From contig JBKHHE010000004.1 in the NCBI GenBank assembly GCA_046539305.1, forward strand, positions 606 to 64,605: a stretch of DNA of 64,000 bases. Direction: 5' to 3'. The notes beneath the pieces are model-generated. The model ran no database searches and was not told the origin of the DNA. It saw nothing but the letters and a program-made list of their open reading frames with translations. This DNA comes from Candidatus Aenigmatarchaeota archaeon. Its GTDB lineage: Archaea; Aenigmatarchaeota; Aenigmatarchaeia; PWEA01. The position numbers and the translations under genes are program-made. Of this stretch, positions 2 to 52,842 are shown one piece after another (the stretch's first letter is position 1; each line of letters opens with the position of its first letter).

Positions 2-703
2 GTAAAATCGGATATACCAAAGGACTCGGGAGGACAGAGCAGCTCCACCGCAGTTTTATCCGCGCTCTTGAGGTTTCTCTCCGAAATATACGATGCGAAA
101 GTTCCGAGGAAAGATTACTTCGGACATCTCTACCCGCTCCAGGTCAAAATCCACGGGGGTGCGGCATCGGGATCCGAGCTGACTTCCAGCACCTTCGGCG
201 GGTACAACCGCGTCGTGAAGACCCCTGACAAAGAAAGGCCCGTGGAGTTCGAGAACCTGGGTAACCTGGAGCTGGACCTGGTTATCGGCGATACAGGCAT
301 AGAGGCGAAGACCGGGAAGACCGTGACCCACGTCCGGGAATGCTGGCAGAAAAACAAGGAAGAGTACGGGACTTATTTCGACCAGATAGCCGACCTGGTC
401 GAGGGGGCGGAGGAAGCTATCGCGCAGGAGAACCTGAAACTTCTAGGTGAGCTCATGGACAGGAACCAGGAAATACTCTCCGACAACCTCGACGTTTCAC
501 ACCCGAAGCTCGATGAACTGATCAAGGCCGCAAAAAGCGCAGGAGCCTACGGCGCGAAGCTTTCAGGAGGTGGTGGAGGTGGAATAATGATAGCTCTATG
601 CGACGAAAACAATAAAAAGGACGTGAATAAAGCTATAGAGAAGACTGGTGGGGTTCCAAATACAACGGAGGTGGGTGTTGAGGGTGTTGGGAGGGAAGTT
701 TGA
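2..703 (+). CDS. mvk: mevalonate kinase (GHMP kinase), 5' end cut by window edge
   Basis: ORF 68..703 stays open in frame back to nt 2. That extension encodes the GHMP motif IPKGLGGQSSSTAV. C-terminal GAKLSGGGGGG glycine loop. Lies in a mevalonate-pathway cluster. Confidence 0.85.
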   Translation, partial: VKSDIPKDSGGQSSSTAVLSALLRFLSEIYDAKVPRKDYFGHLYPLQVKIHGGAASGSELTSSTFGGYNRVVKTPDKERPVEFENLGNLELDLVIGDTGIEAKTGKTVTHVRECWQKNKEEYGTYFDQIADLVEGAEEAIAQENLKLLGELMDRNQEILSDNLDVSHPKLDELIKAAKSAGAYGAKLSGGGGGGIMIALCDENNKKDVNKAIEKTGGVPNTTEVGVEGVGREV

Positions 704-704
704 T

Positions 705-1619
705 ATGACGAGAAAGGTAGAGGACTACGAGGTTTCTGGAAAGGTGAACTTGAAGGAGCTGGTTGAGCAGATGGAGGAATCCGGCGGGTTCCAGGCAAAG
801 AACGTGGGAGTCGCGGCCGAGATTCTGAAAGAAATGAAAGAAGACAAAAGATCCACCAACTTCCTCTCTTTTCCCGCGTGTATAGTTTCCACGGGTACCA
901 GAGGCCTTTTACGTGACCTGATAAAGGAAGATATCTTTGACGCCGTTGTTACAACGTGCGGCACCCTGGACCACGACCTTGCGCGGTACTGGGAGGATTA
1001 CTACCACGGAAGCTTCGAGGCGGACGACGTGGAGCTCCATGGAGAGGACACTCACAGGCTCGGAAACGTCTTCGTTCCCGAGTCATCTTACGGGAAGGTG
1101 GTCGAGGACAACATGCAGGAGCTTCTCGAGGAAATATACGAGGAAGGGAAAAACAAACTTGCGCCCTACGAACTGGTCTGGGAGATCGGGAAGAGGATGG
1201 ACGAGGATTCCCTCTGCTACTGGGCGTGGAGGAACGAGATCCCCGTTTTCGTTCCAGGAATAACGGACGGGGCCGTGGGGACACAGGTATGGATGTTCAG
1301 GCAGGACCACGACTTCACCGTGGACGTCTGGAAGGACGAGGACAAGATCTCGGAGATGGTCTACGACTCGGAACGGACCTCCGGGCTCGTGGTGGGCGGA
1401 GGAATCTCGAAACACCACCTCATCTGGTGGAACCAGTTCATCGGCGGACTTCACCGTCTGGTATACGTCACAACGGCACCGGAGTGGGACGGCTCCCTTT
1501 CGGGCGCGAGGCCCGAAGAGGCGATATCCTGGGGAAAGCTGAAGGAGGAAGGGGAGAGCGTGGAGGTGAAGGGCGACGCGACGGTTTTGCTACCGTTGAT
1601 CGTCGGTTCTATCCTGTAA
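705..1619 (+). CDS. dys: deoxyhypusine synthase
   Basis: ATG at 705, 1 nt after the mvk stop. About 304 aa. DHS-like blocks STGTRGLLRDLI and GGGISKHH (catalytic Lys region). Confidence 0.88.
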   Translation: MTRKVEDYEVSGKVNLKELVEQMEESGGFQAKNVGVAAEILKEMKEDKRSTNFLSFPACIVSTGTRGLLRDLIKEDIFDAVVTTCGTLDHDLARYWEDYYHGSFEADDVELHGEDTHRLGNVFVPESSYGKVVEDNMQELLEEIYEEGKNKLAPYELVWEIGKRMDEDSLCYWAWRNEIPVFVPGITDGAVGTQVWMFRQDHDFTVDVWKDEDKISEMVYDSERTSGLVVGGGISKHHLIWWNQFIGGLHRLVYVTTAPEWDGSLSGARPEEAISWGKLKEEGESVEVKGDATVLLPLIVGSIL

Positions 1620-1685
1620 TATGGGTCATTTGTCGAACTCGGATAACGACATTTTTAAATATTTACTCCAAAAAGTTAAGTCAAT

Positions 1686-2990
1686 ATGAGCTTGAGAGAA
1701 TTTCTGGGGGGTGTTGAGGATAAAAATATCCTCAGAGAGAGCGTCAGGCCCGACTATGAACTTCCTGCGCTGATAGCACAGGACGAATCCAAACCCGTTG
1801 TTTTCGAAAACATCGAGGGATATCCTGACTGCAAGGTGGTCTCGAATCTGGTTTCTACGAGAGAGCTGATCTCCAGGGCTTTAAAGACGGAAAGGGGAGA
1901 CCTGATTGGAAAGATAAGCGAATCTCTAGACAGTCCAAAGGAGTGTGAGGTAACCGATCCAGAGTTTGAAAAGGTGGTGGAGAACCCCGACCTACAGGAG
2001 CATTTTCCCGTCCCGATATTTTACAAGAAGAAGAAAAGGAGGTATATGGCGTCTTCCATCGTCATCTCCAAGGACCCAGAGACGGGAGTCCAGAACATGT
2101 CCTTCCACAGGATGATGCTCAGGGAGAAAAACAAGCTCGCCATGCGCCTCGTGAAGAGGCACCTTCACACTATCTATACAAAGTCGGAGAAACCCCTCCA
2201 GATAGCGATAGTTATGGGAGTGGACCCCGCTGTAGAAGTCGCCGCCGCGACGTCGTATTCGCCCGATCTCGACGAGCTGGAGCTCGCGAACACTTATCTT
2301 GACGGAGGTCTGGAGGTGGCGGAGATCGGCGGACTGAAGGTCCCCAGCAAGGCGGAGGTAGTCATGATGGCTGAGATCAAGGACGAGGAAGTTGAGGAGG
2401 GACCTTTCGTGGACCTGTCGAAGACATGGGACATAGAGAGGAAACAGCCCGCGGTGGAGGTGAAGGAGCTTTGGATGAGGGACGATCCCAGGGTAAGGAT
2501 ATTGCTGCCTGGGAAGAAGGAGCACAGCCACCTTATGGGAGTTCCCCAGGAGCCGAGGATATACAAAATCGTGGAGAATACCGTGCCTACCGTGAAGAAT
2601 GTGGTCCTGACACCCGGAGGATGTTCCTGGCTGCACAGCGTGGTTCAGATAAATAAAAGGAACGAAGGGGATGCTAAGAACGCTGGGATGGCGGCTCTGG
2701 CAGCGCACCCGTCCATGAAAAAGGTCACGGTCGTGGACGAGGACGTGGATCCTGCGGACCCAGAACAGGTGGAGTGGGCCACCGCGACGAGGATGCAGCC
2801 CCACAAAGACATAATATTCATAGAGCGCGCCAAGGGCTCTTCCCTTGACCCGTCACAGGACTACGAGAACAGGTTGATGACCAAGTGGATAGTCGACGCT
2901 ACCGTGCCTTACGAAGATAAGGATCCCGGGGACTTCGAGAGGGCCGAACTTCCCAGAGAGGGCAACGTCGACCTGGAGGATTACAGGTGA
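1686..2990 (+). CDS. UbiD-family decarboxylase; candidate trans-anhydromevalonate-phosphate decarboxylase
   Basis: 434 aa. UbiD-type EGPFVD motif and overall UbiD length. The pathway role is inferred only from its position between mvk and the aconitase-X genes. Confidence 0.75.
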   Translation: MSLREFLGGVEDKNILRESVRPDYELPALIAQDESKPVVFENIEGYPDCKVVSNLVSTRELISRALKTERGDLIGKISESLDSPKECEVTDPEFEKVVENPDLQEHFPVPIFYKKKKRRYMASSIVISKDPETGVQNMSFHRMMLREKNKLAMRLVKRHLHTIYTKSEKPLQIAIVMGVDPAVEVAAATSYSPDLDELELANTYLDGGLEVAEIGGLKVPSKAEVVMMAEIKDEEVEEGPFVDLSKTWDIERKQPAVEVKELWMRDDPRVRILLPGKKEHSHLMGVPQEPRIYKIVENTVPTVKNVVLTPGGCSWLHSVVQINKRNEGDAKNAGMAALAAHPSMKKVTVVDEDVDPADPEQVEWATATRMQPHKDIIFIERAKGSSLDPSQDYENRLMTKWIVDATVPYEDKDPGDFERAELPREGNVDLEDYR

Positions 2991-2994
2991 TAGG

Positions 2995-3579
2995 ATGAAC
3001 AAAGAAGACATGAGAAATATAGAGGATCTGTACGAGAAAGGACAGGAGCCAATTCCTGCCCATTCCTTTGAGAACCACGTGCTTGAAGTTTACGAAAATG
3101 CGAAAAATTTAATAGAAGAGGAAAACGTCGAGGATGAGGTCGTGGAATATGCAGCTCTTCTTCATGACGTGGGAAGGTATTATCCTAGGGAGAACAGTCA
3201 TGCTGAGAAAGGCTCGGAAATTGCGAAGAAATTTCTGATTGAAAAGCTTGGAAAGAGTAAGGAGTTTGCTGAAAAGGTCTCCGAATGCATAAGGTTTCAC
3301 TCAAACAGGCCAGGTGTTGAGCCACCGAGCCGCGAGGCAGAGCTTGTATGGGTTGCTGACAAGATGCACGCTTTGGGTATGACAGGGCTTTTCAGATACT
3401 TGCTTTCTTTGGGAGGGAAGGAGTGCTCCTGTGAAGAGGCCGTAAATCTTCTCAAAACCAGAATAGAGACGGCCGAAGAGCGAATCAGGGACTTTGGATT
3501 CGAGGAGCTGATTTCTGGACTTGATCCGATCAAGAAGGCTGTGAAAAAGTACGAGGAGGAGAACGATGCATCTGACTGA
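2995..3579 (+). CDS. HD-domain metal-dependent phosphohydrolase
   Basis: LLHDVGR HD motif, a second His in RFHSNR, 194 aa. Its 3' end overlaps the next gene by 14 nt. Confidence 0.75.
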   Translation: MNKEDMRNIEDLYEKGQEPIPAHSFENHVLEVYENAKNLIEEENVEDEVVEYAALLHDVGRYYPRENSHAEKGSEIAKKFLIEKLGKSKEFAEKVSECIRFHSNRPGVEPPSREAELVWVADKMHALGMTGLFRYLLSLGGKECSCEEAVNLLKTRIETAEERIRDFGFEELISGLDPIKKAVKKYEEENDASD

Positions 3580-4741
3580 GGAAGAGGAGAAGATGCTGGA
3601 GTCGGACAACCCGGCTGTGCGCAAGGCCATGAAGCTCTTGGTAAAGCTTGGTGATATTTACGGTGCGGAGGAGATGGTGGAGGTGAGTTCTGCTCAGGCC
3701 TCGGGCGTTTCGTACAAGTCCATAGGCGACCCGGGGATGAAGTTTCTTGAGGAGTTTGCCGATGAAGGTGCAGAGGTCTCCGTGCCCACATTTGCAAATC
3801 CCGCGGGCATGGATCTTGATAACTGGAGTAACATGAATATTTCTGAGAAGTTCGCGGAAAAACAGAAGAGGATAATAGACGCGATGAAGCAAATGGGGAT
3901 AAACATAACCACCTCCTGCACACCCTATTTATGGAGCAACCTGCCCCGGAGAAACGAGCACATAGCCTGGGCCGAATCTTCGGCGGTTTCGTTTGCGAAC
4001 TCTGTTATTGGAGCCAGGACAAACAGGGAGGGAGGACCCTCTGCCCTTGCCGCGGCCATAACAGGCAGGACCCCGAAGCACGGGCTCCACCTGGAGGAGA
4101 ACAGGGAGCCCACGCACGTGGTGGAAGTTGACGCTGATATGGAAGAAATATCGGACTTCGGCGCCCTCGGCTCCTGGGTCGGGGAGAGAGTAGAGGATGG
4201 AAAGCCCTACTTCTTTGGAATTGGTTCGGCGGGAACGGACCAGCTCAAGTCCCTGGGCGCAGCTATGGCCGCGTCCGGTGCCGTTGCCCTGTACTTTGTA
4301 GAGGATATAACTGTGGATCCTATGGATGTCTCCGGCCTGGAAAGACTGGAGTTTACTGGAAACGAGATGGAAAAAGAGTACGAAAGCCTGAGCAAATCCC
4401 GGGAACCGGAGCTCGTGGTCTTTGGCTGTCCTCACTGCTCGATAAGTGAGATAGAGGAGATTGCGAAGGGTCTGGAGGGGGAAGAATTGAAGAAAGATCT
4501 CTGGGTCCTCACAAGCAAGGCGGTGAAGGCCTGGGCGGACAGGATGGGATATACGCAGACTATCGAAGAGGCGGGAGGTCAGGTCCTGTCCGATACTTGT
4601 AACGTCGTCTGTCCCATAGAGGATATGAAATATGAGAGGACCGGAACCAATTCGGGGAAGGCCGCAAACTACTTGCCTGGGTTTTGCGAGCAGGATGTAA
4701 CTTTTGCAAGCAAGGACGAGCTTCTCGACATGGTGATTTGA
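3566..4741 (+). CDS. aconitase-X catalytic-domain protein (DUF521); candidate phosphomevalonate dehydratase large subunit
   Basis: 391 aa with a DUF521/AcnX-like sequence. Immediately followed by the cognate small swivel-domain subunit. Confidence 0.72.
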   Translation: MHLTEEEEKMLESDNPAVRKAMKLLVKLGDIYGAEEMVEVSSAQASGVSYKSIGDPGMKFLEEFADEGAEVSVPTFANPAGMDLDNWSNMNISEKFAEKQKRIIDAMKQMGINITTSCTPYLWSNLPRRNEHIAWAESSAVSFANSVIGARTNREGGPSALAAAITGRTPKHGLHLEENREPTHVVEVDADMEEISDFGALGSWVGERVEDGKPYFFGIGSAGTDQLKSLGAAMAASGAVALYFVEDITVDPMDVSGLERLEFTGNEMEKEYESLSKSREPELVVFGCPHCSISEIEEIAKGLEGEELKKDLWVLTSKAVKAWADRMGYTQTIEEAGGQVLSDTCNVVCPIEDMKYERTGTNSGKAANYLPGFCEQDVTFASKDELLDMVI

Positions 4742-12636: not shown

Positions 12637-12891
12637 AGCCCGGTAGTCTAGCCACCTTTTACTCGCTTTTTGGGAACCTGGTTCCCAGACTTGGAAGCTT
12701 GCGCTTCCAAGACGCTCGCAAAACGTGGGCGAAAAGTAAGGTGGGGCAACGGTCAAGGATGTCGGGTTTTGGACACCGCTCGTCCAAAACGTTGAGGCGA
12801 CGATGAGAAAAACCCGGCGACCCAGGTTCGAAGGAAACCTTTAGAAAAGGTTTCATCCAAACTAAGGGTTCCGGAAATCCTGGCCGGGCTA
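12637..12891 (+). tRNA. tRNA-Gln(UUG) with three introns (12652..12749, 12773..12811, 12833..12877); CCA not encoded
   Basis: Hand fold: the spliced 73-nt product is a canonical cloverleaf. It has the A1:U72 pair, A73, U8, A14, G18G19, U33, anticodon UUG and T-loop UUCGAAU. All three insertions sit in bulge-helix-bulge geometry. Confidence 0.82.
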
Positions 12892-29879: not shown

Positions 29880-30581
29880 TCAGAGAAAATCAAATTTTTT
29901 ATCAGGTTTTTCTATGCCGTTTTCCGTGAGCACGACTTGCGTTTCCTTGCCTTCAGGCTGAGACCTATGCTTTCTCAGAATCATGACCCTTTTGCCTCTT
30001 TCGAACTTCTTCATTTCTATAAGGCACTTGGACTGATACTTTGCTATGTCCCTGGAAACGAGCTCTACGCCGCCATTTTCTATGTCCGAATAAATCTGGT
30101 TGGTAATCAAGATGGGGATTCCGTAGTTCCTTGAGAGGTTGGACAGCGTTGAGAGCTGATTGGCGAGCCTGCTGTTTATTTCTTGAGTATCGCCTTCATT
30201 CAACTCCAGTCGGTAAAGGGTCACGAGGGAGTCCAGAACGATAAGCCCTACTTTTTTCTCTTTTTCGCAGATGTTCTCTAGCCTCTCTATATTTTCTTCC
30301 TGGCTGTCGAAGTTGTCAGGTTCTATAAGAATTATCTCATTCATTACGTCGTCCATGCCATCAGCTATCTGTCCCAGTCTCTCCTTGGAGAAGCCACCTT
30401 CAGTGTCGATGAACACCACTTTCTGTCCATTTTTTATGCAAGAGACTGTCGTCTGGAGGCATAAGGTCGTTTTCCCACAGCCCGGAGGACCGTAGATATT
30501 TGTCAGAGTGTCCTTTTCTATACCTCCACCTAGCAGGTCGTCCACTGCCTCACACCCCGTTGAAAGACGCTCGACTTTCAT
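29880..30581 (-). CDS. radB: RadB (RecA/RadA paralog, KaiC-like ATPase)
   Basis: STGCEAVDDLLGGGIE, Walker A GPPGCGKT, 233 aa. Confidence 0.8.
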   Translation of the reverse strand: MKVERLSTGCEAVDDLLGGGIEKDTLTNIYGPPGCGKTTLCLQTTVSCIKNGQKVVFIDTEGGFSKERLGQIADGMDDVMNEIILIEPDNFDSQEENIERLENICEKEKKVGLIVLDSLVTLYRLELNEGDTQEINSRLANQLSTLSNLSRNYGIPILITNQIYSDIENGGVELVSRDIAKYQSKCLIEMKKFERGKRVMILRKHRSQPEGKETQVVLTENGIEKPDKKFDFL

Positions 30582-30622: not shown

Positions 30623-31462
30623 TCAGGCGTAGGATTTGTCGTCTCCACTTTCCCTTAGCTCCCTGATCGATCTGTCCCTTTTCATCTTACTCGACCAAAT
30701 ATCATCTGGGTCTATCCCTTCTTCCGGGCCGGCTTCTGCGTTCCGTTGTTTGTATTCCCACACTATAGCCCTTATATGGTCGGGAGTTATAGGATTCTTT
30801 GTGGACTCGTAGTTCTTTATCTTCCTCTTCAGTTTCTCGTCTACCTCCGTGCTATACTCCTCCTCGTAGTGTTTCACTATTTCTTCTTTCTCCCACTTCT
30901 CGGGCTGTTCATACCTGATAAAAGTGGACATTCTGCCGGGTCTGAGGATGGCATCGTCTATTTTCTCAGGCATGTTGCTTGTAGACAGGACTATGATATT
31001 TTCCTCGGTTCCGAGGGTGGAATCGAGGTTTTCCAGCAAGATATTAGTCCCCGGTCCACGGTCCCTGTCCTTTCCCGTAGCTATATCCACGTCCTCTACT
31101 ACAGGGAAATAATTGTACTGGGGGTATTCATTCGAGAGCTCTCTCACCAAGTCAAAGCCACCTCCCATTGAATGCTTTGGAATATTTATACATTTGCAGT
31201 TCTCGGGAAGTTTGTTCATGAAAGCTTTCAGGGAATCGGTTTTGCCCGTTCCGGGCAGTCCTGCCAAGAAAATCATATTCTCCTCTCGGAGGTAGTCATC
31301 GTCAGCATCCTTGATTCTATTCAACCGGTTCCTGAGCTTCCTCTGTTCGTCCTCGTATCCCTTCAACTCATCGAAAGTAACATGTTCTGGTTCCTCTCCG
31401 GGGGCGTACTCGAAGCCTCGCTGGGTTTTCACTACCTTGAAATATTTGTTCCTCTCCATCAA
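30623..31462 (-). CDS. stand-alone single-domain AAA+ ATPase
   Basis: Walker A GLPGTGKT. Atypical Walker B VVEDVD. Second region of homology ILRPGRMS. 279 aa. Confidence 0.75.
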   Translation of the reverse strand: MMERNKYFKVVKTQRGFEYAPGEEPEHVTFDELKGYEDEQRKLRNRLNRIKDADDDYLREENMIFLAGLPGTGKTDSLKAFMNKLPENCKCINIPKHSMGGGFDLVRELSNEYPQYNYFPVVEDVDIATGKDRDRGPGTNILLENLDSTLGTEENIIVLSTSNMPEKIDDAILRPGRMSTFIRYEQPEKWEKEEIVKHYEEEYSTEVDEKLKRKIKNYESTKNPITPDHIRAIVWEYKQRNAEAGPEEGIDPDDIWSSKMKRDRSIRELRESGDDKSYA

Positions 31463-31665
31463 AGTTCCTGGATATAAAAGACCCCCACGAGCTTATCTCC
31501 GGCACCCGCTCTCCGAGGACACCCGAGATATAAAAATTTTAACTTCTATAGGGCTTTCACCATGAAGAGGGAGGAGCTTGTAGAACATGGGGAAGAAATT
31601 CTCATGAATCTCAACCGGGCCACCGACAGGGCCTACGAAGAATTTGACTTTCTTGGGTGAAAAGC

Positions 31666-31710
31666 TGGCGAGTTCAGCAGGATTTGAACCTGCGGTCTTC
31701 TTCAGGGGTG
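31666..31710 (-). tRNA. orphan tRNA 3' fragment or half (T-arm, 3' acceptor strand, G73, encoded CCA)
   Basis: Minus strand reads GCAGG-UUCAAAU-CCUGC-UGAACUC-G-CCA. No complementary 5' acceptor strand (GAGUUCA) lies within about 300 nt on either side. Confidence 0.5.
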
Positions 31711-31792
31711 GATTTATTTCTCTGCTCACCTTCGTCTTTTTTATTCACTTAAACAAAAACTTTATAAAGTTTAGTTTACATACATAAAAACC

Positions 31793-32179
31793 ATGAAGGC
31801 TGAAATAACCCCAGACAAAAGTGGAAATGTAGCAGCACTCGTGAGCTTTTGCGTGAACTCCGAGGAATTTCCCTCCAACTACAACCGCAACAAGTTTTAC
31901 CGCGGTCTTTACGGCTGGAGGCAGAAGGTCAGGCGCGGTGGGAAAGAATATGTATATGATCGCAAGGGTATACTGGACAGGATACCGCATATAAAAGTGG
32001 ACAAGTCAGTGTACGTCGTTCCCTTTGAAGCATTGGACAGGGTGGTAGACTACCTCGACTCCTGGAGAAAAAAGGTCGACTACAAGATATTCAAGGTTTT
32101 GTTGGAAAAGGATAGATTTAAAAAAATGAACACGAAAGAAACCCAGGAGGAAAGCTGGACCAAAATTCCTGTGAAATGA
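31793..32179 (+). CDS. hypothetical protein, translationally coupled to cdc48
   Basis: 128 aa. Its stop overlaps the cdc48 ATG (ATGA). Alternating beta-alpha-like pattern with no recognised motif. Confidence 0.55.
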
Positions 32180-51610: not shown

Positions 51611-52842
51611 TTTTCATCCAGTTCTCTAGCAATTTCCCTTATCTCCCACTGGGCCGCCTCGTTGTTCCTGTCCTCCATAAAGCCTTTCGTCAGATTGAAT
51701 CCATCCAAACTGAAGGCCACTCCAATGTTCATACCATGTGGCAGGACCTCCAAAGCCTCGTCTTTACCATATCTCCTTGACAGGCCTTCGTAGATTTTGA
51801 GGGACTCGCCACATAGATCCAGATAATCCTCGGTATAGTTGGATTCTTCTATACTTTCCGGGATGACTATCTCGCTTCTCTCTGCCGCATCGTATATTGA
51901 TTCCACAGACTGCTTGACGGTATCGTTTCTCATAAACTGGTGCCAGGCCGAAAGAGACATCTTTGAAACGTAACCCTCTACCTCTTCGGTGTTGTTTGAC
52001 AGGTTTAGAAAGGTGGTCGCCTGGTCATCAAGCTTTTTCGCTCTTCTGAAAAGATTTAGATCCACGTCCTTTTCGAAAGGCCTAACTTCTTCGAAACCGT
52101 CCAGAAAGTTAAGGGTTTCATCGACCCATTCGTTTCCCTCGGAGAACATGTTGGCTACAGGATATCCATTTCCCGTTTCGTTGTATATATCTATCAGTTT
52201 TCTGTCAAAAAGAATAGGTTCCCTGTCTTTCAATTTTTCCAGTGTGTCATCCATGACTCCGGAAGATACACTGGGTACCTTGGACTCTTCGGATTCCAAG
52301 ACCCTGAAGACGTTAGCCAGGCCGACAAAGTTGGTGTTCTGATGTATATGTTTGGCTGATGTAGCGAGAGGTAGCACGTATCTGGCGTCCTCCTTCTCGA
52401 TGCCGCCATCTACCATCTGCTTGTAAAAGTCCATCTGATTCTCAAAGAGTTCCTTTCCTCGGTCATATTTTGTGGTGAAGTCATCCGCCTCTGTGTACCT
52501 CTGGGACTGCTGCAAGTATTTTGGATGATCGAACTGGCAAAGGAACATGGTGGTATGCCTGGGAATCTCATAGTTTAAACCGACATTGGCCTGATAAAAA
52601 CAGGACGTGTGTCCCATCCCGGCAAGCCTTTCCAGAAAACCTCTCTGTTCTTGCTCCAGCTTCTTCGGGTCCATATCTTCCTTTTCCACCTCCCAGATAT
52701 CCTTCGCCGAGCGCCCCTCCTGGTCGTGGGAAATCTTGGCGGGATAAACCGATGCCTCTGTTGCACCCCATTCAGGGTTTTCCGGGTCCTGAGGTATTTC
52801 CGAAACCTCTACCTTGGGATCGCTTAAAGTTATTTCGGACAT
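51601..52842 (-). CDS. thyX: flavin-dependent thymidylate synthase ThyX, apparent tandem duplication (413 aa)
   Basis: First repeat has GHTSCF, RH...QQSQRY and ARYVLPL. Second repeat has a degenerate serine-loop (AWHQFMRNDTVKQSVES) but intact EVLPHGMN and AAQWEIREIA. Confidence 0.8.
   Translation of the reverse strand: MSEITLSDPKVEVSEIPQDPENPEWGATEASVYPAKISHDQEGRSAKDIWEVEKEDMDPKKLEQEQRGFLERLAGMGHTSCFYQANVGLNYEIPRHTTMFLCQFDHPKYLQQSQRYTEADDFTTKYDRGKELFENQMDFYKQMVDGGIEKEDARYVLPLATSAKHIHQNTNFVGLANVFRVLESEESKVPSVSSGVMDDTLEKLKDREPILFDRKLIDIYNETGNGYPVANMFSEGNEWVDETLNFLDGFEEVRPFEKDVDLNLFRRAKKLDDQATTFLNLSNNTEEVEGYVSKMSLSAWHQFMRNDTVKQSVESIYDAAERSEIVIPESIEESNYTEDYLDLCGESLKIYEGLSRRYGKDEALEVLPHGMNIGVAFSLDGFNLTKGFMEDRNNEAAQWEIREIARELDENYL

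Follow-up and report, generated by a model that had tools for sequence, protein, structure and literature searches.

The presence of a short DNA segment that reads as the 3' half of a tRNA gene, with an encoded CCA end and no 5' half beside it, raises the question of whether the genome concerned employs a split tRNA, carries the scar of an integrated element, or simply retains a piece of a broken gene. The segment is located on the minus strand of the window, the 64,000-nucleotide stretch of DNA from Candidatus Aenigmatarchaeota archaeon analyzed in this study. The corresponding assembly comprises 695,701 bp in 17 contigs, with 49% G+C and a completeness of ~90%. A preliminary description, made from the letters of the sequence, had put forward all three explanations: (i) a trans-spliced tRNA half, (ii) the attachment site (att) remnant of an integrated element, and (iii) a decayed pseudogene. 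Synteny and similarity data support the last of these. With a probability of about 0.8, the segment is a non-functional relic of a class-I tRNA gene, of which it retains positions 38-76 at the 3' end, and it was brought in with, or left behind by, the event that inserted ~1.1 kb of DNA.

The fragment spans 31704-31666 on the minus strand and accounts for 39 of the ~76 positions of a tRNA. It comprises (i) 11 bases (31704-31694) that fit position 38, the 5-nt 3' strand of the anticodon stem, and a variable loop of 5 nt with C48 as its last base; (ii) a T-arm (31693-31677) with a perfect 5-bp stem, GCAGG/CCTGC, and a 7-nt consensus loop; (iii) the 7-nt acceptor 3' strand TGAACTC (31676-31670); and (iv) the discriminator G73 (31669) followed by CCA (31668-31666), all of them on the minus strand. 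The elements from the T-stem to the CCA end (31693-31666) read exactly as they had first been described. The reported lack of a D-arm and an anticodon arm is equally confirmed, with nothing tRNA-like fitting upstream of 31704: neither a D-arm, nor an anticodon loop, nor a 5' acceptor strand can be drawn at the locus, and the bases immediately 5' of 31704, which would occupy positions 32-37, offer no U33 and no purine at position 37.

Standard tRNA detection does not recognize the fragment, with no tRNA called anywhere in the window either by ARAGORN or by Rfam at the gathering thresholds. Under relaxed thresholds, Infernal aligns the locus with the RF00005 model at 23.6 bits, below the gathering score of 29 bits; the alignment is convincing in the 3' part only, the rest of the match forcing an AT-rich promoter into the role of acceptor stem and D-arm, with two acceptor-stem mismatches. 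This sub-threshold score for a full-length tRNA is what speaks for a merely fortuitous resemblance, a reading that is effectively refuted by the frequency of the motif itself. A consensus T-arm with CCA at the right spacing occurs at 17 sites of the genome, corresponding to the fragment and the 16 listed tRNA genes, and at none in 60 simulated genomes (first-order Markov). In addition, the match to a tRNA-Val gene described below extends over 39-45 nt, so that the probability of a chance likeness is negligible. The fragment is genuinely derived from a tRNA gene.

The tRNA genes of this genome (G000) provide the reference against which the fragment can be judged. They are intron-rich, the D-loop and the T-loop included. 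Introns at the D-loop, anticodon loop, and T-loop display a recurring motif common to many genes, composed of an A/T-rich stem hairpin followed by a tail resembling ...TTCATC-AAAA, as observed at C2:97256-97473, C2:94161-94274, C12:2-125, and C13:9981-10141 of G000 and at 12637-12891 of the window; the recurrence suggests one spreading intron family. The last of these loci is tRNA-Gln(UUG), a gene with three introns that was missed by both ARAGORN and Rfam and that carries no encoded CCA. The preliminary description had noted this absence correctly, but the conclusion drawn from it, that an encoded CCA is unusual here, does not hold: CCA is encoded in 16 other tRNA genes of the genome, tRNA-Val(GAC) among them, and its occurrence in the fragment is therefore not anomalous.

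Two other features do set the fragment apart. Firstly, its stems are AT-rich, contrary to all working tRNAs in the genome. The acceptor strand contains G or C at three of its seven positions, versus five to seven (nearly all six or seven) in the listed true tRNAs, making it a clear outlier. Secondly, the other consensus T-arms of the genome each have a perfect 5' acceptor strand in cis, no more than 190 nt away, with a single exception, a tRNA-Asn(GUU) gene truncated by the end of contig 5. The assembled portion of that gene runs from the anticodon loop to the 3' end and occupies the last ~60 nt of the contig (G000:C5, ~52760-52818, minus strand); tRNA loci therefore do sit at assembly breaks. 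The truncated tRNA-Asn(GUU) and the fragment have a common T-stem.

The search for a missing 5' half covered both strands of all contigs, retrieving 7-mers that could form a stem with the acceptor strand, with G-U pairs and one mismatch allowed, and combining these matches with U8, with a D-arm signature, or with the anticodon-stem strand required by 31703-31699. The 696-kb, ~90% complete assembly yielded no 5' half whose acceptor strand fits, and in particular none beginning with GAGUUCA, the partner that had been proposed for the search. The matches returned by the scan corresponded to (i) chance occurrences in coding regions, (ii) the reverse complement of the fragment itself, and (iii) the 5' end of the intact tRNA-Val(GAC) gene. 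GAGUUCA is indeed absent from the 31463-31792 region, as originally stated, but an exact copy lies just outside, at 31860-31854 on the minus strand. This exactly complementary 7-mer runs antisense within a 128-aa gene and is not followed by a D-arm. A multi-intron tRNA with 31860-31854 as its 5' exon was considered and rejected, there being neither a D-arm nor an anticodon stem-loop, and the putative exon lying antisense in a conserved coding sequence.

The leader and the trailer of the fragment provide a second line of evidence on a possible partner. The leader of a split tRNA 3' half is complementary to the trailer of its 5' half, usually over 12-14 nt and with a GC-rich composition. Here, the leader (31705-31736, minus strand) constitutes the part of the insertion nearest the promoter, is AT-rich, and displays no tRNA homology. 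When the 42-nt leader was searched against the genome, no complementary partner rose above chance level, the best of the 12-14-nt matches reaching an E-value of 0.066; the suggested use of the leader complement as a guide to the trailer of a 5' half thus led to chance-level matches only. An apparent second, degenerate T-arm within the leader was rejected as well, since it reduces to an 11-mer in common with the T-arm of the initiator tRNA, at chance level (E = 4).

The preliminary description had also pointed to a helix enclosing the fragment, formed by GGTGAGC in the leader (31730-31724) and the trailer just past the CCA (31665-31656). The complementarity and the coordinates stand, and the two segments can pair; the stability of the helix is weak. 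The leader/trailer helix together with the T-arm folds at -9.9 kcal/mol, compared with -7.9 kcal/mol for the T-arm alone, a gain of ~-2 kcal/mol. The helix contains a single bulge and is not a bulge-helix-bulge (BHB) motif. Furthermore, it gives way to the minimum-energy fold, which reaches -16.5 kcal/mol by pairing the leader with the acceptor/CC end around the T hairpin. Compared with shuffled sequences, the fold z-scores are -0.85 for the minus strand and +0.58 for the plus strand, neither of them significant.

These results bear directly on the proposal that the fragment is the functional 3' half of a trans-spliced tRNA, the 5' half of which would reside in the unassembled ~10% of the genome. 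The fragment shares with the split 3' halves of Nanoarchaeum equitans and some Crenarchaeota a start at position 38, a promoter, a leader of ~30 nt, a T-arm, and an acceptor strand. The start coincides exactly with the canonical intron and split site, the T-arm is intact and perfectly paired, G73 and CCA are in place, and a TATA box lies ~25-30 nt upstream of a plausible transcription start. The many non-canonical introns processed from the tRNAs of this organism imply that a splicing endonuclease of broad specificity is presumably present, and the partner search covered the ~90% share of the genome that is assembled. In contrast to the known split halves, the fragment has no 5' half in the assembly, no GC-rich complementary leader and trailer, and no partner with which a BHB could be built, and its stems are AT-rich. 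Position 33 is U in essentially all tRNAs, whereas a canonical BHB at 37/38, with four leader bases forming its central helix, would need G33, as judged from the sequence. Every other complete tRNA gene observed in this genome is encoded as a single unit, and the class-I tRNAs with G73 to which the fragment could belong, namely Asn, Asp, and Arg, are already supplied by the genome, as is Val, leaving no missing isoacceptor to account for. Moreover, the fragment is not kept in relatives, and the promoter upstream of it is the conserved promoter of the host locus and not one dedicated to a tRNA half. Taken together, the split-tRNA proposal is not supported and appears extremely unlikely; if true, it would describe a split tRNA of recent origin in a DPANN archaeon outside the nanoarchaea, arising from inserted DNA that captured a host promoter.

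The nature of the locus becomes apparent when it is compared with related genomes, using two synteny alignments that include seven and five same-genus genomes, respectively. Among 40 related genomes, only the ~60 nt around a palindromic TATA element are conserved, with 85-90% identity in all seven same-genus genomes. The TATA element itself (31760-31769) is flanked by 30-nt imperfect inverted arms and belongs to a bidirectional promoter at 31737-31792 (conserved block, ~31736-31797), which serves the operon of cdc48 and the 128-aa gene and, in relatives, has radB on its other side. The element had initially been read as a TATA-like sequence upstream of a possible start for the fragment; it exists where it was placed, but it is part of this host promoter and not a promoter of the fragment's own. 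In six of the seven other same-genus genomes the order is cdc48, a small ORF, the palindromic promoter, and then radB. Five of these six loci are long enough to show the promoter running directly into a second TATA-like element and radB, while the remaining one ends with its contig just after the radB start. In the seventh genome, G001, a different gene follows the promoter in place of radB. None of the seven genomes, all of which carry the promoter, contains the fragment.

In the genome under study, radB, encoding a Rad51/RecA-family ATPase (29880-30581, minus strand; Pfam Rad51, 3.8e-31), has been pushed ~1.1 kb away from the promoter. Alignment with the same-genus loci reveals a lineage-specific insertion located at ~30628-31736, with breakpoints at ~31736/31737 and ~30628, that separates the conserved promoter from the radB TATA box. 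The insertion is seen in this genome alone and is absent from the seven same-genus genomes. Along the minus strand it contains the tRNA fragment, 30-70 nt inside its promoter-proximal end, followed by a possible 32-aa ORF on the opposite strand and by a gene for a stand-alone 279-aa AAA+ ATPase. Its G+C content of 46-48% is not distinct from the surroundings, and terminal direct or inverted repeats across it were found at chance level only. The 274-nt spacer that holds the fragment has no homolog in 200 other genomes of the same class, except for the 3' end of one tRNA-Val gene.

The AAA+ gene (30623-31462, minus strand; Pfam AAA/DUF815) is incomplete. In an exhaustive HMMER search, its product corresponds only to the C-terminal half of a protein family whose members measure ~550-590 aa. 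Nearest among these is P0012 (556 aa), with 47% identity over P0012 residues 269-541 and an alignment that begins at the first residues of the ORF. The gene is a 5'-truncated copy, and neither the locus nor the rest of the genome yielded the N-terminal half; what was inserted is therefore broken DNA and not an intact module. No ortholog exists in the seven same-genus genomes, a word-indexed protein search returned no close relative, and comparison with PHROGs and PADLOC yielded generic AAA matches only. The neighborhoods of the relatives P0012, P0013, and P0016 contain neither mobile-element genes nor a tRNA.

The possible 32-aa acidic ORF (31562-31660, plus strand), taken from the ORF list and the sequence, stops 6 nt short of the fragment, is oriented divergently to the AAA+ gene, and has a TATA-like element ~30 nt upstream. 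This arrangement admits the notion that the fragment was co-opted as a structured element, for example to terminate the ORF transcript or form its 3' end on the plus strand, or to act as a tRNA-like module in a 5'-UTR on the minus strand. On the plus strand, the T-arm hairpin follows ~15 nt after the stop codon of the ORF and a T-run lies at ~31735-31745; on the minus strand, the minimum-energy fold described above engages the leader with the acceptor/CC end. The folding z-scores given above lend significance to neither strand, the ORF is only putative, and no relatives carry the fragment for a covariation test. Such a co-option is accordingly rated highly unlikely.

The fragment is closest to one type of tRNA gene. 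The best match to the spacer in the 200 other same-class genomes is the 3' end of tRNA-Val(GAC) in G005, a genome of the same genus, with 82% identity over 45 nt, extending into the T-run trailer. Across positions 38-76, the fragment agrees with the same-genus tRNA-Val(GAC) at 32 of 39 bases. The seven substitutions include six transitions, and at five of the seven sites the fragment has A or T where tRNA-Val(GAC) has G or C; some of the changes leave the acceptor stem with a potential G-U pair in place of a G-C pair. By comparison, none of the tRNAs encoded in the genome under study matches the fragment at more than 27 of 39 positions; the fragment is therefore not a recent duplicate of a resident gene. 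The genus harbors two T-stem alleles of tRNA-Val(GAC), three base pairs and six substitutions apart. The fragment resembles the allele of G005 and G001 (GCAGG/CCTGC T-stem) in its T-arm, which is identical, in its CCA, and in its T-run trailer, whereas the intact tRNA-Val(GAC) of the genome under study (G000:C2:85333-85448) carries the other one. It differs from the G005/G001 gene in the seven substitutions, which weaken the anticodon and acceptor stems, in having G instead of A as the discriminator base, and in missing the whole 5' part. The tRNA-Val(GAC) loci of the genus (L027-L033) vary between species in the intron content of the D-loop and the anticodon loop.

Neither a donor sequence nor an intact source tRNA was identified in the genome, viral, and metagenome collections searched. 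An exact 24-mer of the fragment has no match in the genome and viral contig collections. Two metagenome matches were rejected as unrelated, one being a tRNA-Lys(UUU) in an AT-rich contig and the other an orphan T-arm-like piece. The former belongs to contig Ga0307946_1000114 (L037), which harbors nine tRNA genes in ~4.6 kb (146-4731); its T-arm and acceptor 3' strand are exactly those of the fragment, an agreement taken as coincidental.

The extent and position of the fragment also recall an attachment site. The tRNA-borne sites of integrative elements usually begin on the anticodon-loop side of the tRNA and reach its 3' end, over ~39-45 nt. The fragment covers the same portion and length, it lies near one end of a lineage-specific insertion, and the accompanying cargo is a truncated AAA+ gene that lacks orthologs in the genus. 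A site-specific element targeting a tRNA 3' end could have integrated and decayed, leaving one att copy and the AAA+ cargo behind. Several observations oppose this strict att interpretation. A search for a second copy, as had been advised, established that the fragment is present once in the genome, with no direct repeat there or at the other end of the insertion. In the relatives, the site of the insertion is devoid of tRNA genes, and the junction of the insertion falls outside the tRNA-like segment. No tyrosine integrase was found in the assembly, the PF00589 profile giving no match where all 14 control genomes were positive, which for this one family extends the earlier remark that no integrase is nearby to the whole assembly. 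The exact 24-mer, finally, is missing from the viral as well as the genome contig collections. Of the att proposal, then, the location near the end of a 1.1-kb insertion stands, loosely, and the features expected of an integration site do not; as a whole, it is considered unlikely.

The reading that best accommodates the data remains that of a decayed relic. In the proposed sequence of events, ~1.1 kb of foreign or rearranged DNA would have separated the conserved bidirectional promoter from the TATA box of radB. The tRNA-Val-like 3' piece most likely arrived with the inserted DNA, or was a remnant of the rearrangement behind the insertion, and would then have drifted towards A/T, the direction of decay that the substitutions point to. 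Passive transcription driven by the host promoter may still include it at the beginning of a longer RNA. The fragment most likely lacks function, and a tRNA cannot be made from it.

Other archaea are reported to contain partial tRNA fragments, ascribed there to integrations or rearrangements (PMC3218864). The fragment described here resembles them in consisting of an isolated 3' portion with no 5' part, in lying at a break of synteny beside lineage-specific DNA, and in showing no evidence of function. It differs in that no intact target tRNA, repeat copy, or integrase is found alongside, in that the host has a very small DPANN-type genome, and in that the insertion lies between upstream promoter elements and the radB TATA box and not at a tRNA locus.

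For annotation, neither tRNA nor split tRNA is an appropriate label for the fragment, and the adjoining AAA+ gene should be recorded as a truncated copy. In itself the finding is of little significance, being one more relic tRNA fragment that marks a small insertion of foreign or rearranged DNA. For the biology of the organism, it indicates that a DPANN genome of ~0.7 Mb still acquires and retains debris, in this case wedged into the promoter region of radB.
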